Sequence record: OP870144.1
Reading direction: 5' to 3' (one strand)
Length of the DNA stretch: 64,000 nt
DNA from: Escherichia phage vB_Eco_F25
Below the pieces are notes generated by a model. The model did not search any database. It saw nothing but the letters and a program-made list of their open reading frames with translations, and had not been told where the DNA came from. Of this stretch, positions 2,775 through 63,013 are shown one piece after another (position 1 is the stretch's first letter; every line of letters starts with the position of its first letter). The translations under genes were made by a program, and so were the position numbers.

Positions 2775-4591
2775 TACTGGCTCATCCATTCTTTACGAAG
2801 GTCAGCATTATCTCCCATGAGCATTTCAAAAAGCTCTTTCCAATTCTCAGGAAGTTTAACAACATCATAAACTGGGTTTTGAATCATCTCACGATATTCA
2901 GATTTTTCCAAAGAGCCAAGTCCTTTAATATAACGGATGCTATGTTTAGGTAGAGCATCTTTGGCACTCTCATATTCAGCGACTGTATAAAACCATTCTT
3001 GTTTTTTACCGACCTGAGCGATGATTACAGGAGTTTTGACAAAGCGAATTCTTCCTTGTTCAAACAATTCTGGCCAATTACTAAAAAATCCGAGCAGAGA
3101 AGGATAAATGCTTCCTAGACCATCGTGGTCAGCATCAGTCATAATTGCAATATTATGATAATTCAAGTTTTCAGCTTTTTCACCAAGAACCAATCCAGTG
3201 ATTGCGCAAATATCAAACAGTTCTTTGTTTTTAAGCATATCAGCATATGACATACCCCAACTGTTGAGAACTTTACCACGCAATGGATAACCACCATGAA
3301 GTTCTTTATCACGAACATCAATAAGATATCCGATAGCAGAATCACCCTCAGTCAAGAAAAGAGTAGTATCAGCATCTTTACCACAAAGATTCGCTTTAAT
3401 ATGTTTATGAACCTTGGCTTTAGAAGCCTTTTTAGCTGCTTTAGTTTCAGCTGCTTTTTCTGCTGCCAATTTACGAGCCAAGGCAGCTTCAATAATTGGC
3501 ATTAAAATTGCTTCATTATTTAAAATAGCACGTGAAATCTTTTTAGCATCAAGCTGAATATGACTACGGATTTCACCAAATGGAGAAGTCAGACGCTCTT
3601 TAGTCTGAGAATCAAATCGCATGTTTTTCATATCACGAACAAACATAACGATAGTCAAACATTCTTTAACACGTGCTTTAGTTACATCAATTTTGAATTT
3701 ACGTTTGATTTGTGGAATAAGGTCTTCACAAATATCATCCATAACACAATCAATATGATGGCCACCATTCTTGGTATGAATGTTATTGACGTATGTTAAT
3801 TGACGAAAACCATCCGGTGAACGACCAACCGCAATAGAACAATTTTCTTGTTCTTGAACGATAGCATGTTCATCATATTGACGTGCATATTTCTTAAAAT
3901 TACCCTGAACCTTTTTACCATTAAAGGTAAATTGAATATCAGGATAAACTACCGCAAGTGTCTGGAGACGATCCAGCGTAATGTCAAGATAAACTTGAGA
4001 TAACTCATTAGTTTCAAATGACATAAAATCGGGAATGAAAGTAACGCGAGTTCCTTTCCATTTTCCAGGAATATCTTCCCATGATTTATTTTCCATGCCG
4101 TTTGAACAACGAACTACAATATTATTTTGACCGTCGCCAGTTTCACCGACAAACATCACAGAAAAAATGTTAGTTAAACTAGAACCAACACCATTCATAC
4201 CGCCAGTGACGCGTTCTTTATCATCACCAAAGTTACCGCCTGCTTTTGGAATAGTCCATGCAGCAACTGGGCCAGGAATTTCTTCACCGGTAGGTGTTTT
4301 AACCATCGCTTGTGGAATACCACGACCGTTATCTTCAACTGTTACTTGATTGTTTTTGATAGTAACATTAATTTTATTTGCGAATTTAAACTTAGTACGA
4401 ATACCTTCATCTACTGAGTTATCGATAATTTCATCAATAAGCTTAACAAGACCAGGTACATACTGAACACTTTCCCATTTACCAAACAGAAAGCGCTCAT
4501 GCATTTCATTAGCAGAAGAGCCAATATACATGCCGCTACGCTTTTTGATATGTTCAATATCGCTCAGAATTTTAATTTCATTCTTAATCAT
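2774..4591 (-). CDS. 39: DNA topoisomerase II large subunit, single 605-aa form (T4 gp39 plus gp60 equivalent)
   Basis: ATG at 4589-4591 (ORF-track start is GTG one codon upstream); MIKNEIKILSDIEHIKKRSGMYIGS GyrB-like ATPase N-terminus; no gene 60 split or mobA insertion. Confidence 0.9.
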   Translation of the reverse strand: MIKNEIKILSDIEHIKKRSGMYIGSSANEMHERFLFGKWESVQYVPGLVKLIDEIIDNSVDEGIRTKFKFANKINVTIKNNQVTVEDNGRGIPQAMVKTPTGEEIPGPVAAWTIPKAGGNFGDDKERVTGGMNGVGSSLTNIFSVMFVGETGDGQNNIVVRCSNGMENKSWEDIPGKWKGTRVTFIPDFMSFETNELSQVYLDITLDRLQTLAVVYPDIQFTFNGKKVQGNFKKYARQYDEHAIVQEQENCSIAVGRSPDGFRQLTYVNNIHTKNGGHHIDCVMDDICEDLIPQIKRKFKIDVTKARVKECLTIVMFVRDMKNMRFDSQTKERLTSPFGEIRSHIQLDAKKISRAILNNEAILMPIIEAALARKLAAEKAAETKAAKKASKAKVHKHIKANLCGKDADTTLFLTEGDSAIGYLIDVRDKELHGGYPLRGKVLNSWGMSYADMLKNKELFDICAITGLVLGEKAENLNYHNIAIMTDADHDGLGSIYPSLLGFFSNWPELFEQGRIRFVKTPVIIAQVGKKQEWFYTVAEYESAKDALPKHSIRYIKGLGSLEKSEYREMIQNPVYDVVKLPENWKELFEMLMGDNADLRKEWMSQ

Positions 4592-39931: not shown

Positions 39932-40402
39932 TTAATCATGTGTCCACACCCCATCGGTATTTGACCAAAGTCGCTGATTATCTGATCCTCGCCACAGCTT
40001 TTTAGTCGGAAGATTTTTCTCATACTTCCCATCAATAATAACATCAACATATTTAAGCATTTCTAGTTGTTTAATATCTTCAAACTTATATCCTGTCCAC
40101 AACCAAATGCTTTTATTGGGATAAAGATTTTTAATAGTTTGAACCACAGAGTGAATCACGTCTCTGTTATCAGGATAAAGAGGGTCTCCTCCAGTTATAG
40201 TTAATCCTTCTATATAATCATTATTCAAACATTCAATTAATTGTTCTAATGTTTCACCAGTGAATGGAATACCATTTCTAGCATTCCATGTTGATTTATT
40301 ATAACACCCTTCGCATTTATGCAAACATCCAGTAACGAAAAGAACTGTCCTGCATCCAGGACCATTAACAAAGCAGCACGGGTATATTCTGTCATAATTC
40401 AT
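39932..40402 (-). CDS. nrdG: Anaerobic ribonucleotide reductase activating protein (radical SAM)
   Basis: 156 aa, same as T4 NrdG; MNYDRIYPCCFVNGPGCRTVLFVTGCLHKCEGC. Confidence 0.9.
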   Translation of the reverse strand: MNYDRIYPCCFVNGPGCRTVLFVTGCLHKCEGCYNKSTWNARNGIPFTGETLEQLIECLNNDYIEGLTITGGDPLYPDNRDVIHSVVQTIKNLYPNKSIWLWTGYKFEDIKQLEMLKYVDVIIDGKYEKNLPTKKLWRGSDNQRLWSNTDGVWTHD

Positions 40403-41231
40403 TTATATATTTCCAATTATAGCCTTCAACACTTTTACGTTCGCCATTTAAACATTTTAAAATATTTCCTTTGCTAGAAATATTAAAATATTTTGCTGCG
40501 TCTGGTATATAATTAAATGTTTTTAAAAGAACACCATCTTTATATGCGCCAAATAAATTAAGAGTATATTTTTCTCGAAGACGCTGATGTTTCCTTTTCA
40601 TAACCTCAGGATTTGCATACGCCAACTTCAATGAATTTCTGTGTTTTTCTTTTACTTCAGGTTTTTGCATTGCTAACTTAGTTAGCCTGGAAATTTTATT
40701 TCTAACTTCGTCAGTTTTCATTGCATTTGACAAATTTAATAAAGTTTTATTTCTAACTTCAGGTTTTTGCATTGCTAACTTAGTTAGTTCTCTATGTCTT
40801 TTTCTAAAATCGTCATCCTTCCATATATTTTTCGATAATTTTGACATAGAGCGGTGAAATAATTCCTTTTCACTGGAATACAATTTAAAAATTTCATCCA
40901 ATTCATCCGCATTAAATCTATCGGTATTCAAGTTTATCATTCTATGAAAGGCATAACACATTTTACTATTGCTTGTTTTAGCTAAATAGTAATGAGCTAA
41001 CGCATGGTCATAATATGACAAATTAACAATATTCCATTTATCTGTTTTATATTCAGGAAATATAGATTTGGGAAGCACGTGATGTGCTTCCGTTTTTCCT
41101 TTTATTTTAGGATTATTATAATTTTTTGTTATCAAATCAACATATGACAATAGTAAATCATTATTTTCTTCAAATATTAAAGCTAATTTATCATTCACAA
41201 AATCGCAAGGATAAAATCTATCATAATTCAT
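40392..41231 (-). CDS. HNH homing endonuclease (free-standing) between nrdD and nrdG
   Basis: 279 aa; HNH motif EAHHVLPKSIF...YYDHALAHYYLAK; repeated LTKLAMQKPEV(R/K)NK modules; first 13 codons mimic the nrdG start. Confidence 0.8.
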   Translation of the reverse strand: MNYDRFYPCDFVNDKLALIFEENNDLLLSYVDLITKNYNNPKIKGKTEAHHVLPKSIFPEYKTDKWNIVNLSYYDHALAHYYLAKTSNSKMCYAFHRMINLNTDRFNADELDEIFKLYSSEKELFHRSMSKLSKNIWKDDDFRKRHRELTKLAMQKPEVRNKTLLNLSNAMKTDEVRNKISRLTKLAMQKPEVKEKHRNSLKLAYANPEVMKRKHQRLREKYTLNLFGAYKDGVLLKTFNYIPDAAKYFNISSKGNILKCLNGERKSVEGYNWKYINEL

Positions 41232-43045
41232 TGGTGTTTAACCCTATGCATGATTTCTTTATTTTTGCCGAGATTAAATCCGCGTTCGTTCGGATTCCCC
41301 AAATAACCGCAAGTTCTTCTTATTGTGTTCATCTTTTTAGGATCAGTTTCTCCACAGATAGAACAAACAAATCCGTTTTCAGTAGGAGTCATTTCATGAG
41401 TACTTCCGCATGTAAAACATTTATCTACTGGCATATTAACACCAAAATAATCTAAATGTTGTGCAGCATAATCCCATACGGCCTCAAGACCCTTTAAGTT
41501 ATTTTTCATATCAGGAAGTTCAACATAAGAAATGTGACCACCTGTCGCAATGAAATGATATGGCGCTTCACGAGAAATCTTTTCAAACGGAGTAACATTT
41601 TCTTCTACTGAAACGTGGAAACTGTTAGTGTACCAGCCTTTATCGGTAACATCTTTTACACTTCCATATTTTTCGGTATCGAGTTTACAGAAGCGATAAC
41701 AAAGGTTTTCAGCAGGAGTAGAATACAAGCTAAAAGCAAATCCGGTTCTTTCAGTCCACTGCTTAAGATGAGCATTCATTTTAGTTAAAATTTCTTGTCC
41801 AATGTCACGACCGACAAGAATATTCAATTCATGAATACCAATGTATCCTAAAGACACTGAACTTCTACCGTTTTTAAATAACTCAATTATGTCGTCATCA
41901 GGTTTAAGACGAACCCCGAATGCACCTTCTTGGTAAAGAATAGGAGCAACAGTCGCTTTAACTCCTTTTAAGGAACTAATTCTACACATCAATGCTTCAA
42001 AACATAAATCCATTCGTTCATTGAATAATTCAACAAATTTCTGTTCATTGAACTGTGTTCCAATATAAGAATCTAACGCAATGCGAGGAAGATTTAGTGT
42101 TACAACGCCAAGATTATTACGTCCATCAAGAATTTCATTACCAGTCGAATCTTTCCATACACTCAAGAAACTGCGGCAACCCATTGGAGAAACAGGAATA
42201 GATGAGCCGGTGATAGCTTTATTGTTCTTAGCTGAAATAATATCAGGATACATTCTTTTGCTTGCGCACTCTAGAGCAAGCTGTTTAATATCATAGTTCG
42301 GATCGTCTTTATAAAGATTAACACCTTCTTCAACAAACATAACAAGCTTAGGGAAAATAGGAGTTATCCCATCACGACCAAGACCGTTAATACGATTTTT
42401 CAGAATTGCTTTCTGAATCATTCGTTCAGTCCAGTCAGTTCCCGTACCAAATGTAATTGTTACAAAAGGCGTTTGTCCGTTTGAACTAAAGAGAGTATTT
42501 ACTTCATATTCATAAGCTTGGAATGCATCGTATACATCTTTTTCTGTTTTAGATTGAGCATAATTCAACGCATCAGCGATTTGCCATTTTTCTGCATCCT
42601 CAATATGTTTTGCATAGGTGCGTTTAACATAAGGAGAAAGTACTTTATCTACATTAGCAAAAGTCGTTCCGCCGTATTGATGGGAAGCAACCTGTGCAGT
42701 AATTTGTGCCATAATTGCAGTAGCAACTCCAATTGATTTAGGAGTTTCAATCTGTGCATTACCAAGCTTAAATCCGTTCTCAAGCATTCCTTTTAAATCT
42801 ACTAAACAACAATTAGTAAATGGAAGAGCAGGGGAATAATCAATATCGTGGAAATGAATAATTCCGCTTTCATGCGCTTTCATAATAAAAGACGGGACCA
42901 TATTTTTGGCAATGTGTTTAGACACAATACCAGCCATAAGGTCCCGTTGAGTTGGAAAAACACGAGAATCTTTATTAGCATTCTCGTTTAAAAGGTCTTT
43001 ATTAGTTTTATGAATCAATCCTTCAATTTCTTTTTCAATTGTCAT
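41228..43045 (-). CDS. nrdD: Anaerobic ribonucleoside-triphosphate reductase (glycyl radical enzyme), uninterrupted
   Basis: 605 aa; C-terminal glycyl radical motif RRTCGYLG and CxxC pairs; no intron-like interruption. Confidence 0.93.
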   Translation of the reverse strand: MTIEKEIEGLIHKTNKDLLNENANKDSRVFPTQRDLMAGIVSKHIAKNMVPSFIMKAHESGIIHFHDIDYSPALPFTNCCLVDLKGMLENGFKLGNAQIETPKSIGVATAIMAQITAQVASHQYGGTTFANVDKVLSPYVKRTYAKHIEDAEKWQIADALNYAQSKTEKDVYDAFQAYEYEVNTLFSSNGQTPFVTITFGTGTDWTERMIQKAILKNRINGLGRDGITPIFPKLVMFVEEGVNLYKDDPNYDIKQLALECASKRMYPDIISAKNNKAITGSSIPVSPMGCRSFLSVWKDSTGNEILDGRNNLGVVTLNLPRIALDSYIGTQFNEQKFVELFNERMDLCFEALMCRISSLKGVKATVAPILYQEGAFGVRLKPDDDIIELFKNGRSSVSLGYIGIHELNILVGRDIGQEILTKMNAHLKQWTERTGFAFSLYSTPAENLCYRFCKLDTEKYGSVKDVTDKGWYTNSFHVSVEENVTPFEKISREAPYHFIATGGHISYVELPDMKNNLKGLEAVWDYAAQHLDYFGVNMPVDKCFTCGSTHEMTPTENGFVCSICGETDPKKMNTIRRTCGYLGNPNERGFNLGKNKEIMHRVKHQ

Positions 43046-58855: not shown

Positions 58856-59193
58856 CTAGTACTCAATCCTCGATTATAAGAATCTACCAAACGGTCAACC
58901 ATTGAATGACAAGCGGCTTTATCTTTCTCCTCCGCAACTGAACATTCTAAGGTATTCCACTTTTTAGCATATCGTTTTAACAATGTATCATTTTTGTATC
59001 TGCTTGATTTATCTCTTTCTCCGTCTTTATATGCATATATTAATTTCTGCGCAAATTCAGCTTGGCATGCTTTATTTTTCCCGCAATAATCCGCGGCAGT
59101 ACGGTTTACATACTCTCTAATTTCAGTATATGATGTATTTGCTAACGCAGAAAATGAAATTAATCCTATACATAAAACCAAAATTTTAGTCAT
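58852..59193 (-). CDS. Hypothetical secreted protein
   Basis: 113 aa; N-terminal signal peptide MTKILVLCIGLISFSALA; four Cys. Confidence 0.5.
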   Translation of the reverse strand: MTKILVLCIGLISFSALANTSYTEIREYVNRTAADYCGKNKACQAEFAQKLIYAYKDGERDKSSRYKNDTLLKRYAKKWNTLECSVAEEKDKAACHSMVDRLVDSYNRGLSTR

Positions 59194-59731
59194 TTACTAT
59201 TTCCAGTAGTTTATTATTTTTAAGGTAGTTAGCCTTTTCTAGGACTTCAGAAGCATATTTAGAACCTGCTTTAACATTCCATCCCGAATTATAAGAGGAT
59301 ATTGCCTTTCTTATATCACCCTTATGTATATTTAACCAATAAGAAAGTTCAATGTACGCCCAGGAAGCTGAATTGGACCGTTTATTCAACATTCTTTTTA
59401 TTTCAGCATCGGTCATATTATAACCAAGTTCCTTAACTCTTGCTCGCATTGTCGGCAAATAATTTTGGAACATTCCATAGGCATGATGCTTTGGTTTAGA
59501 TTTTAAATTAACTCCGGCAGAGCTTTCTTGCCATAAAATAGCAGCCATTATATGACCTAATCCGCTCTTGTGGATATTTTTGTGTGTTTTATATTTTCCA
59601 TCCTTAGAAAATTGTTCCCCGAATTGATACGCGTAACGCATGTTATCGAGTTGGACATTACTGAAAGTATGCTCGGAGCTATGTGCCATCATTGAAATGG
59701 CCAATAGACCAGCGAGTAGTGCTTTTCTCAT
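59186..59731 (-). CDS. Putative lytic transglycosylase-like periplasmic protein
   Basis: 181 aa; signal peptide MRKALLAGLLAISMMAHS; SLT-like WQESSAG segment. Confidence 0.5.
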   Translation of the reverse strand: MRKALLAGLLAISMMAHSSEHTFSNVQLDNMRYAYQFGEQFSKDGKYKTHKNIHKSGLGHIMAAILWQESSAGVNLKSKPKHHAYGMFQNYLPTMRARVKELGYNMTDAEIKRMLNKRSNSASWAYIELSYWLNIHKGDIRKAISSYNSGWNVKAGSKYASEVLEKANYLKNNKLLEIVND

Positions 59732-60580: not shown

Positions 60581-60840
60581 ATACTGGCTTCTTTGAGTTT
60601 CGTTTTAGCAATAGTTAACTGATCGAGGCTTTCAGCATAATTCTTCGTGAATTCACAGTCTTCACAATTATCTAGTGCTTCCCAGAATTCATCATATAAA
60701 GCATCAAAGATAAGCCCTAAACGAACTTCAGCATCTTTAATAGCATTCACTTTACTGATTTTATCGTCAGTATGTGGCTTATAACCCTTAATATCTTCAA
60801 TCATATTTGACTTCCTCACCAGTACATAAATCATATTCAA
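60538..60840 (-). CDS. Hypothetical protein
   Basis: 100-aa ORF. Confidence 0.45.
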
Positions 60841-61018
60841 CTAAACGAATAGGTTCATGAATGCCATATCCTTGAACAGAAATTTCTGTCGTAGGATAAA
60901 TTCCACTAATATCACCCATGTTCCACGCTTCGTTAAATTGCTGTTCGCCTGAATTACTAAACCACTCGGCGAAAGCATTTAGCACATCTTCAGAACCTTC
61001 AATAATTATCTTTGCCAT
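60797..61018 (-). CDS. Hypothetical protein
   Basis: 73-aa ORF. Confidence 0.4.
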   Translation of the reverse strand: MAKIIIEGSEDVLNAFAEWFSNSGEQQFNEAWNMGDISGIYPTTEISVQGYGIHEPIRLVEYDLCTGEEVKYD

Positions 61019-61392
61019 TACAAACTCTCAGTAAAGGTACGAGCAATAACGTCGCGCTGCTGTTCCGGAGTCAGAGAGTTAAAGCGAACTGCATAACCGG
61101 ATACACGGATGGTCAACTGCGGATATTTTTCCGGATGCTTAACTGCATCTTCCAGAGTTTCACGACGCAGAACGTTAACGTTCAGGTGTTGACCACCCTC
61201 GATTTTAACTGTAGGTTGTGTTTCAATTTCAATTTCACGGGCATGCAAACCATAGAAAATTTCTGGGTCTACAAAAGAGTCCTCTTTAAAGGTTTTAGAG
61301 ACAATAATTCGTGCTTGAATACCGTCTTCAAAATAAATAGTACCTTTATGCGTGCCTTCAAGAATTTGATATGCTTTCATATAACCTCTCAA
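61018..61392 (-). CDS. grcA: Autonomous glycyl radical cofactor (GrcA/YfiD-like)
   Basis: 124 aa; C-terminus [61 protein letters not shown] with glycyl radical motif RVSGY. Confidence 0.8.
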
Positions 61393-62414: not shown

Positions 62415-62432
62415 AGGCCTAAGTATAGGCCT
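62415..62432 (-). terminator. Possible hairpin downstream of ipIII
   Basis: aggcct aagtat aggcct inverted repeat. Confidence 0.3.
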
Positions 62433-62434
62433 TA

Positions 62435-63013
62435 TTAATTACCACGGGCTGCATTAGCAACGGCATAAGCGTACTGAACATTAGCGTCCTTAAACGTACC
62501 TTTAGAGGTATCTATTTCTGCCTTAAAGCCGCCTTTAGCCATAACATCGGCAAATTCTTTACGGAAAGCCATTGCATCAAGACCTTTCCATGATGATTTG
62601 TGCTTAGCGAATTCAAGACCAGCGTAGTTGACAGCCTTAGCTAATTTATTATCAATGACCCATTTACCGGCTTTAGGCACAAACTTCGGGCCTTTTTGTT
62701 TAGAGAACAGTTTTAAATTCCAGCGACGAAGATCACTGTCGGCTTTAACAAAAGCTGCGTCTAAGTTACTAGCAACAACATCTTCAATATGAGCAAATTT
62801 AAGTCCGTCAACTTCAATATTTAAATCGGTACGCCAGCGAAGTCCTTCCCAAGCGAAAGCTTTAAAATCGGAAGCTTTTGTAGCTAAGTATCGTTCAATA
62901 GGGGCTGTTTTAGGGTCAAAGCCGTTTCCACCACGATAGTTCCACTCGTCCTTATTAATGCCTTTTGCCTTTACTACAGAAGCTTCAGCAATAAATTCTT
63001 GATACGTTTTCAT
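62435..63013 (-). CDS. ipIII: Internal protein III
   Basis: 192 aa; N-terminal capsid-targeting sequence MKTYQEFIAEA; basic Lys/Ala-rich body. Confidence 0.8.
   Translation of the reverse strand: MKTYQEFIAEASVVKAKGINKDEWNYRGGNGFDPKTAPIERYLATKASDFKAFAWEGLRWRTDLNIEVDGLKFAHIEDVVASNLDAAFVKADSDLRRWNLKLFSKQKGPKFVPKAGKWVIDNKLAKAVNYAGLEFAKHKSSWKGLDAMAFRKEFADVMAKGGFKAEIDTSKGTFKDANVQYAYAVANAARGN

Follow-up and report, generated by a model that had tools for sequence, protein, structure and literature searches.

A T4-type glycyl-radical cofactor gene in Escherichia phage vB_Eco_F25 as a mosaic of an old phage 5' half and a 3' tract probably replaced from host grcA

The gene described here belongs with two proteins known from earlier work, the autonomous glycyl-radical cofactor GrcA (YfiD) of E. 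coli and Y06I, the vs.6 product of bacteriophage T4, the latter a textbook 'spare part' since 2001. As recounted in a 2021 JBC article (PMC8683613), Knappe and co-workers (Wagner et al. 2001) found both YfiD and Y06I to be radicalised by the activase of pyruvate formate-lyase (PFL) and each to form a complex with O2-cleaved PFL that restores its activity; in the same article YfiD and Y06I figure as the sole validated spare-part proteins. The structural element that such a spare part replaces is the C-terminal domain of the 760-residue PflB (approximately residues 697-759; PDB 1h16, 2pfl), and the phage protein corresponds to this detachable radical domain joined to a short N-terminal part. The two kinds of gene differ in their surroundings, E. 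coli grcA lying beside ung and the phage gene within a phage early-gene cluster.

At the DNA level a parallel is offered by the cyanophage psbA and psbD genes which, like vs.6, are auxiliary metabolic genes of T4-like phages consisting of a patchwork of phage-type and host-type sequence with shifts in GC content, a pattern attributed to homologous recombination with host genes. Intragenic recombination between host and phage in these genes was reportedly described by Zeidner et al. 2005 and Sullivan et al. 2006. The vs.6 case differs from that of psbA in several respects: the host is an enterobacterium and the phages are hydroxymethylcytosine (hmC)-containing T-evens that degrade host DNA, there is one sharply bounded host segment of 168 nt with zero to few synonymous differences from the current host, and conversion affects precisely the domain required to fit host enzymes.

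The DNA analysed is a window of 64,000 nt from Escherichia phage vB_Eco_F25 (OP870144.1), to which all positions refer. Its open reading frame list holds a minus-strand ORF at 61018..61392 that would encode 124 amino acids if begun at a TTG codon, and an initial annotation made from the sequence had assigned it to a GrcA/YfiD-like protein. The ORF list, Pfam, TIGR04365 and the match to the E. coli GrcA structure 6owr all uphold this assignment, for a product that is likelier to have 120 residues than 124. The coding sequence, here grcA/vs.6, probably starts at the ATG at 61380 rather than at the TTG at 61392 and would then cover 61018..61380 (minus strand, 120 codons plus TAA), since a Shine-Dalgarno-like GAGAGG (61385..61390, minus strand) precedes this ATG by 4 nt and the resulting length equals that of the 363-nt T4 vs.6 CDS. 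The GAGAGG shares nucleotides with the TGA stop codon (61389-61391) of the upstream gene vs.7; the TTG sits upstream of it and is not the start annotated in T4. At the other end, the stop codon of grcA/vs.6 overlaps the ATG of the downstream gene vs.5 (TAATG; ORF 60797-61018). The order vs.7-vs.6-vs.5, upstream of regB in T4, recurs in the ORFs of the window and in Mosigvirus. A scan for promoters and terminators near the gene returned counts at chance level, and grcA/vs.6 appears to be read as one of the closely spaced, leftward genes of the vs cluster. The window is a Tequatrovirus genome. Over the 2.5 kb surrounding the gene it has 95-98% identity to hundreds of T4-like phages of Escherichia and Shigella, many of whose records label the gene 'autonomous glycyl radical cofactor GrcA' or 'pyruvate formate-lyase'.

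Two further features of this region were recorded. The vs.1 orthologue (59186-59731, minus strand, 181 aa) has a signal-peptide-like N-terminal segment, MRKALLAGLLAISMMAHS, and a marginal match of vs.1 to SLT lytic transglycosylases has been noted in the literature (PMC1524935). At 62415-62432 a perfect 7-bp palindromic hairpin (AGGCCT-ATAC/TTAG-AGGCCT), with a terminator-like score on both strands, lies directly 3' of the stop codon of a 192-aa ORF (62435-63013) which, going by the annotations of its neighbours, is the gene of internal head protein IpIII.

The predicted protein is identical to T4 vs.6/Y06I (NP_049730) at 118 of 120 residues, the two substitutions being T54 for P54 and R73 for H73 of T4. 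By this identity and by gene position it is a member of the vs.6 (Y06I) orthologous group of Tevenvirinae, sharing with T4 vs.6 its length, its place between vs.7 and vs.5 and its mosaic structure, and differing from it at the DNA level by three extra synonymous changes in the tract described below. Pfam Gly_radical matches residues 60-101 (E=2.2e-18), and TIGR04365 (spare_glycyl) aligns residues 20-120 to positions 25-126 of its 126. The score against the latter profile, 154.6 bits, stays below the equivalog cutoff of 170 bits of a model built for bacterial GrcA because the N-terminal half is divergent; NCBI still names the phage proteins GrcA. The layout is that of the GrcA/YfiD family (TIGR04365, IPR011140), small stand-alone proteins of about 120-130 aa with a C-terminal glycyl-radical domain. 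Among solved structures E. coli GrcA/YfiD ranks first (6owr, E=4.6e-42), and this sequence match settles the predicted fold of the C-terminal domain; second comes PflB, matched at its C-terminus (residues 697-759, E=5e-26, about 80% identity over 63 residues). In the HMMER alignments to 6owr and 1h16/1cm5 the motif RVSG95Y corresponds column for column, making Gly95 (codon at 61096..61098, minus strand) the predicted glycyl-radical site, equivalent to G102 of GrcA and G734 of PflB. Taken together, these comparisons argue that the feature is an orthologue of T4 vs.6/Y06I and a GrcA/YfiD-type autonomous glycyl-radical cofactor, that is, a gene whose identity and function were already known.

A protein comparison with E. 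coli GrcA had been named in advance as the way to check the assignment, which was to fall if only weak, motif-level likeness appeared. BLASTP gave 74/100 identities over residues 22-120, far above chance, with all of the last 60 residues (E61-L120) identical, including the RVSGY loop. The C-terminal string quoted by the initial annotation is correct for these 60 residues; its first letter should read I60 (…VKIEGGQ…) instead of V. That the N-terminal half differs, as had also been stated, is borne out by about 14/40 identities (~35%) over residues 22-60 and by the failure of residues 1-21 to align. In length E. coli GrcA exceeds the phage protein by 7 residues, and the 5' half of the phage gene is AT-rich with phage codon usage.

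From the 118/120 identity and the unchanged radical domain we infer that the window protein works as T4 Y06I does. Repair of host PFL, one of the two roles proposed in the initial annotation, is the function reported in vitro for the T4 orthologue (Wagner et al. 2001, as cited in PMC8683613). Host PflA, a radical SAM enzyme, would generate the radical by removing a hydrogen from Gly95 of the RVSGY loop; the C-terminal domain carrying this radical would then dock on host PFL cleaved by O2 at Gly734, standing in for the lost C-terminal fragment, and the docked complex would again convert pyruvate and CoA into acetyl-CoA and formate. For the phage the benefit may lie in maintaining fermentative ATP and acetyl-CoA during microaerobic or O2-shift infection. 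A decoy role might also suit a protein that mimics a host domain exactly and whose divergent N-terminal half could in principle change regulation or partner binding; by copying the GrcA/PflB radical domain it would titrate PflA or block PflB and so redirect host metabolism. We regard this as very improbable, since in the published biochemistry of Y06I, as far as it is given in PMC8683613, PFL is reconstituted and not inhibited, and a co-occurring formate-dependent NrdD would be expected to suffer from PFL loss.

The other role put forward in the initial annotation, repair of the phage's own NrdD, started from the presence of nrdD and nrdG within 39932-43045, which Pfam confirms. The nrdD gene (41228..43045, minus strand; NRDD 4.8e-171, Gly_radical 1.4e-25) is a single uninterrupted 605-aa ORF for the anaerobic (class III) ribonucleotide reductase, a glycyl radical enzyme, and nrdG (39932..40402, minus strand; Fer4_12 1.4e-48, Radical_SAM 1.2e-7) encodes its radical-SAM activase. 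Between them lies a 279-aa ORF (40392-41231, minus strand) with a weak I-HmuI NUMOD-like match that falls short of the Pfam cutoff (E=2.4e-4); its product is probably a homing endonuclease of the free-standing kind. NrdD, too, is cleaved by O2 at its glycyl radical, and a spare part that replaced the cleaved C-terminal radical fragment and was activated by phage NrdG would agree with the co-occurrence of the three genes, as with the nucleotide-metabolism role guessed for vs.6 in an early comparative genomics paper (PMC1524935). Such a protein should resemble the NrdD radical domain at its C-terminus, a likeness that was not found: the best BLASTP hit between the GrcA-like protein and the NrdD of the window has E=4, no detectable similarity, as against E=5e-26 and about 80% identity to residues 697-759 of PflB and 60/60 identity to the end of E. 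coli GrcA. The T4 protein, moreover, is reported to work with PFL and PFL-AE (PMC8683613). This half of the proposal is thus left without sequence support, and we think it hardly credible. The preferred reading, repair of host PFL, leaves room for a functional link between grcA and nrdD of another kind, through the supply of formate. NrdD1 enzymes generally use formate. T4 NrdD and its E. coli counterpart have been assigned to the same subtype, NrdD1 (PMC4493059), and class III reductases can take formate directly as reductant (PMC5704485), so that restored PFL may keep available the reductant needed by the phage NrdD, as by other formate-dependent class III reductases.

The initial annotation had further suggested that the host-like C-terminus points to a relatively recent acquisition from an enterobacterial host, and that nucleotide identity and codon usage of the C-terminal half be compared with host grcA. 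This comparison divides the gene in two. Codons 1-60 (61201..61380, minus strand) are of phage type (GC 0.34, GC3 0.22) and find no host nucleotide match, their identity being 89% to Mosigvirus and 71% to Jiaodavirus. Codons 61-116, a tract of 168 nt (61033..61200, minus strand; GC 0.49, GC3 0.43), are 98% identical to E. coli grcA (165/168), and the three differences, at 61198, 61116 and 61045, are all synonymous. Against pflB and tdcE the tract DNA is only about 76-83% identical, except for a pflB-type patch in Klebsiella phage KP179. Pairwise alignment places an abrupt switch from phage to host sequence at codon 60/61, with only scattered identity upstream and no homology in the host flanks, and GC climbs from about 0.33 to 0.48-0.51 within the tract, a jump in sequence type and composition inside one gene like that of cyanophage psbA. 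The tract is defined without the final four codons. These are phage-specific throughout the phages examined and form, with the TAA, a tail at 61018..61032 (minus strand) ending in GAG AGT TTG TAA. Site by site, the AGC of the host reads AGT in the tail of all phages examined; the idea that the tail is kept as the ribosome-binding site of vs.5 was dropped, T4 itself having GAA, not GAG, there. With the tail included, the 3' 183 nt of the ORF are identical at 177/183 positions (96.7%) to grcA in 5,425 of 5,426 E. coli genomes, the 5' half remaining unmatched. When the whole 64-kb window was compared with the same 5,426 genomes by megablast, no match besides the grcA tract was obtained. A host-like tract of this kind could be the product of host contamination or chimeric assembly, of which no supporting sign was found; over 640 phage genomes sequenced independently of one another, T4 and T2 among them, show an in-frame mosaic with identical boundaries, as do IMG/VR contigs, and the probability of an artefact is accordingly negligible.

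Near-identity to the host might be sought in selection on the protein, and synonymous sites speak to this point. For 82 bacterial grcA genes and the phage homologues from GenBank and IMG/VR, Nei-Gojobori distances were calculated over the 168-nt tract. T4 and three other phages (L091, L092 and L095) show 0 synonymous differences in 42 sites from E. coli grcA (dS 0), with a single non-synonymous difference in T4; the window shows 3/42 (dS 0.075) and the Mosigvirus PhAPEC2 2/42 (dS 0.049). The hosts stand further apart, E. coli grcA differing synonymously from that of Citrobacter at 13/42 (dS 0.40), from that of K. pneumoniae at 17/43 (dS 0.57, unrounded 0.565) and from that of Salmonella at 25.5/43 (dS 1.2), and the T-even tract is nearer to E. 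coli grcA than is the grcA of any other genus. The Pseudotevenvirus SemperBestia and L101, with the same amino acids as E. coli (dN=0), differ at 26-27 of 42 synonymous sites (dS 1.35-1.5). As phages of other genera thus encode the same amino acids at saturated synonymous divergence, protein selection does not appear to explain the near-identity of the tract to host DNA. The records of the phage database have a bimodal distribution of identity to the E. coli tract, 391 of them having at least 99% (many 100%, e.g. T2 and ECML-134), 251 having 95-99%, only 2 having 90-95% and 107 having 80-90%.

Phages of Klebsiella carry the corresponding allele of their own host. The Jiaodavirus KP17 has an orthologous gene of the same position and length, with a recognisably shared N-terminus (MKAYQILEG…), whose nt 181-353 have 97.1% identity with the grcA of K. 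pneumoniae, 92% with that of K. aerogenes and 88.6% with that of E. coli; over the tract, KP17 and Nispero are 97.6% identical to K. pneumoniae grcA. In terms of dS, the KP17 tract lies at 0.10 from K. pneumoniae and 0.52 from E. coli, and the tracts of E. coli phages lie at 0-0.075 from E. coli and 0.52-0.74 from K. pneumoniae. The own-host allele is therefore found in the same segment in phages of different hosts, and 106 phage records have 95-99% identity to K. pneumoniae grcA, all of them Klebsiella phages among the matches listed. Since the tract is in host codon usage and the host alleles are apart by a normal orthologous distance, the direction of transfer is judged to be from host to phage. 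A tract of Salmonella type was also sought, and no phage exceeded 84% identity to S. enterica grcA, which gives no sign of a third host type there; in Enterobacter phage id4496 no host-converted tract was found, its best match being 81%.

Pairs of phages allow the two parts of the gene to be dated against each other, on small difference counts. T4 and the Mosigvirus-type L095 differ at 18/180 positions of the 5' half and at 1/168 of the tract (Fisher p=6e-5), and L092 and L095 at 19/180 and 0/168 (p=3e-6); in the two Jiaodavirus phages Nispero and KP179 it is the tract that differs more (12/168, against 2/180 in the 5' half; p=0.005). The tract of E. coli phages is, on these counts, younger than the phage lineages that carry it. 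In the Jiaodavirus set as a whole (L004, L170, L172 and KP179, L173) the 5' halves are 97-99% mutually identical and the tracts 92-99%, the opposite of the E. coli phages.

These data bear on the simplest history, in which the chimeric gene or its 3' half was taken up once and purifying selection on protein, codon usage or mRNA structure has kept it identical ever since. Very strong protein constraint on the C-terminal domain (dN about 0 in all lineages) would be in keeping with this, and so would the differences from the host, few, mostly private to single phages and star-like, as slow divergence from one ancestor might also leave them. Other phage genera, though, have reached dS values of 1.35-1.5 with identical amino acids, Klebsiella phages have the K. 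pneumoniae allele joined at the same boundaries to an orthologous phage 5' half, and tract divergence falls far below that of the 5' half between Tequatrovirus and Mosigvirus (the p values of 6e-5 to 3e-6 given above) and exceeds it within Jiaodavirus. A single acquisition followed by conservation is therefore largely refuted and in our estimation improbable.

The tract of KP179 is itself composite. Within its grcA gene (421-783 of L173), a patch at 694-732 is identical to K. pneumoniae pflB (L196) over 34-39 nt (tract positions about 93/98-131) and differs from K. pneumoniae grcA at 7/7 consecutive discriminating sites, which suggests that it came from the host paralogue pflB, or from a host grcA allele earlier converted by pflB. 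The patch accounts for the centre of the KP179 tract and not for its other five differences. Outside it, the best donor in a collection of plasmids and chromosomes reached 92%, equally for K. pneumoniae and K. aerogenes, and a metagenome search for the donor with 41-nt exact matches gave no match. With 24-nt matches, K. pneumoniae-type pflB genes were retrieved, together with one grcA-pflB chimeric contig. In this 3.9-kb contig (OIEZ01001054.1, L195; ~3520-3903, minus strand) the N-terminal part of a K. pneumoniae-type GrcA is fused in frame to a pflB-type 3' end (…NSLTKEQQQDVITRTFTQTM, then stop); the ORF either arose as a chimera when the assembly crossed the shared repeat or reflects a true gene conversion between grcA and pflB in a bacterium.

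Unrelated virulent phages of enterobacteria widely carry GrcA-like genes, with DNA-level matches in 1,477 GenBank phage records. Those of T5-like Epseptimavirus, Krischvirus, Pseudotevenvirus, Slopekvirus-type Klebsiella phages and jumbo Yersinia phages have the same architecture and the conserved core, but their 3' halves are 70-85% identical to any of the 82 host grcA genes, have lower GC3 and include no recent host tract. Outside Tequatrovirus, Mosigvirus and Jiaodavirus the near-identical host tract was absent (L007, L008 and L096-L158; T5-like, Krischvirus, Pseudotevenvirus and jumbo phages). Exact runs shared with the host gene measure 71-173 nt in E. coli-type phages and 44-104 nt in Jiaodavirus phages, against just 14-20 nt in phages without a host-like tract. 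Between Tequatrovirus phages and Klebsiella, or Jiaodavirus phages and E. coli, the exact runs reach only 23-38 nt, and under a homology threshold conversion after such a host switch would be expected to be rare.

The 5' half is phage-specific, its divergence between T4 and the phages of Klebsiella has reached saturation, and the position between vs.7 and vs.5 is constant across genera, so the gene as a whole would be old in phages and recent host origin would be limited to the 168-nt tract. Recent acquisition as first suggested holds, then, for the 3' tract and fails for the gene as a whole. A T4-like phage may have captured an ancestral full-length grcA long ago, after which the 5' half would have drifted toward phage composition and homologous recombination (gene conversion) would have rewritten the 168-nt tract from the grcA of the host then infected, in at least one event in the Tequatrovirus/Mosigvirus phages of E. 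coli and independently in the Jiaodavirus phages of Klebsiella, probably repeatedly, with the paralogue pflB supplying occasional patches. Conversion might be possible only where long exact matches with host DNA persist, which would explain the sharp and conserved tract boundaries. One point sits uneasily with conversion from the host: T-even phages break down host DNA, which contains cytosine, so that the template should be in limited supply. As for the number of events, the tract may also have been acquired once in E. coli phages and then passed by phage-phage recombination across Tequatrovirus and Mosigvirus, in which case 'recurrent' would shrink to 'at least two events'. All considered, we hold with good confidence that the window gene is a vs.6/Y06I orthologue repairing PFL, an old phage gene in which homologous recombination with host DNA has replaced the 3' tract at least twice. 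With less assurance, though still on balance, we favour the further view that ongoing host-templated conversion, from grcA and occasionally from pflB, keeps the T-even spare-part tract matched to the current host, lineages that fall under the homology threshold decaying to about 80%. In the literature searched we found no description of host-templated conversion between vs.6 and grcA; an earlier mention may exist.

The gene itself is not new, being T4 vs.6/Y06I, routinely annotated and labelled GrcA in hundreds of phage genomes; what is added here is the mosaic at the DNA level. The pattern suggests that hmC-modified, strictly virulent T-even phages recombine with the host chromosome often enough to hold a 168-nt tract at 99-100% identity to the species that they infect, and the vs.6/grcA tract offers a simple, testable system in which host-to-phage gene conversion may be measured. 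It also cautions that a 'host-like' segment in a phage auxiliary gene need not imply recent capture of the gene. Tracts of E. coli type and Klebsiella type separate cleanly in 751 tract-matching phage genomes, and the tract is a possible marker of the recent host of T4-like phages, both in isolates and in metagenomes. If conversion is indeed ongoing, the tract would be a natural record of the recent host species of a virulent phage, and a rare documented instance of a strictly lytic phage, one that degrades host DNA, recombining recurrently with its host by homology.
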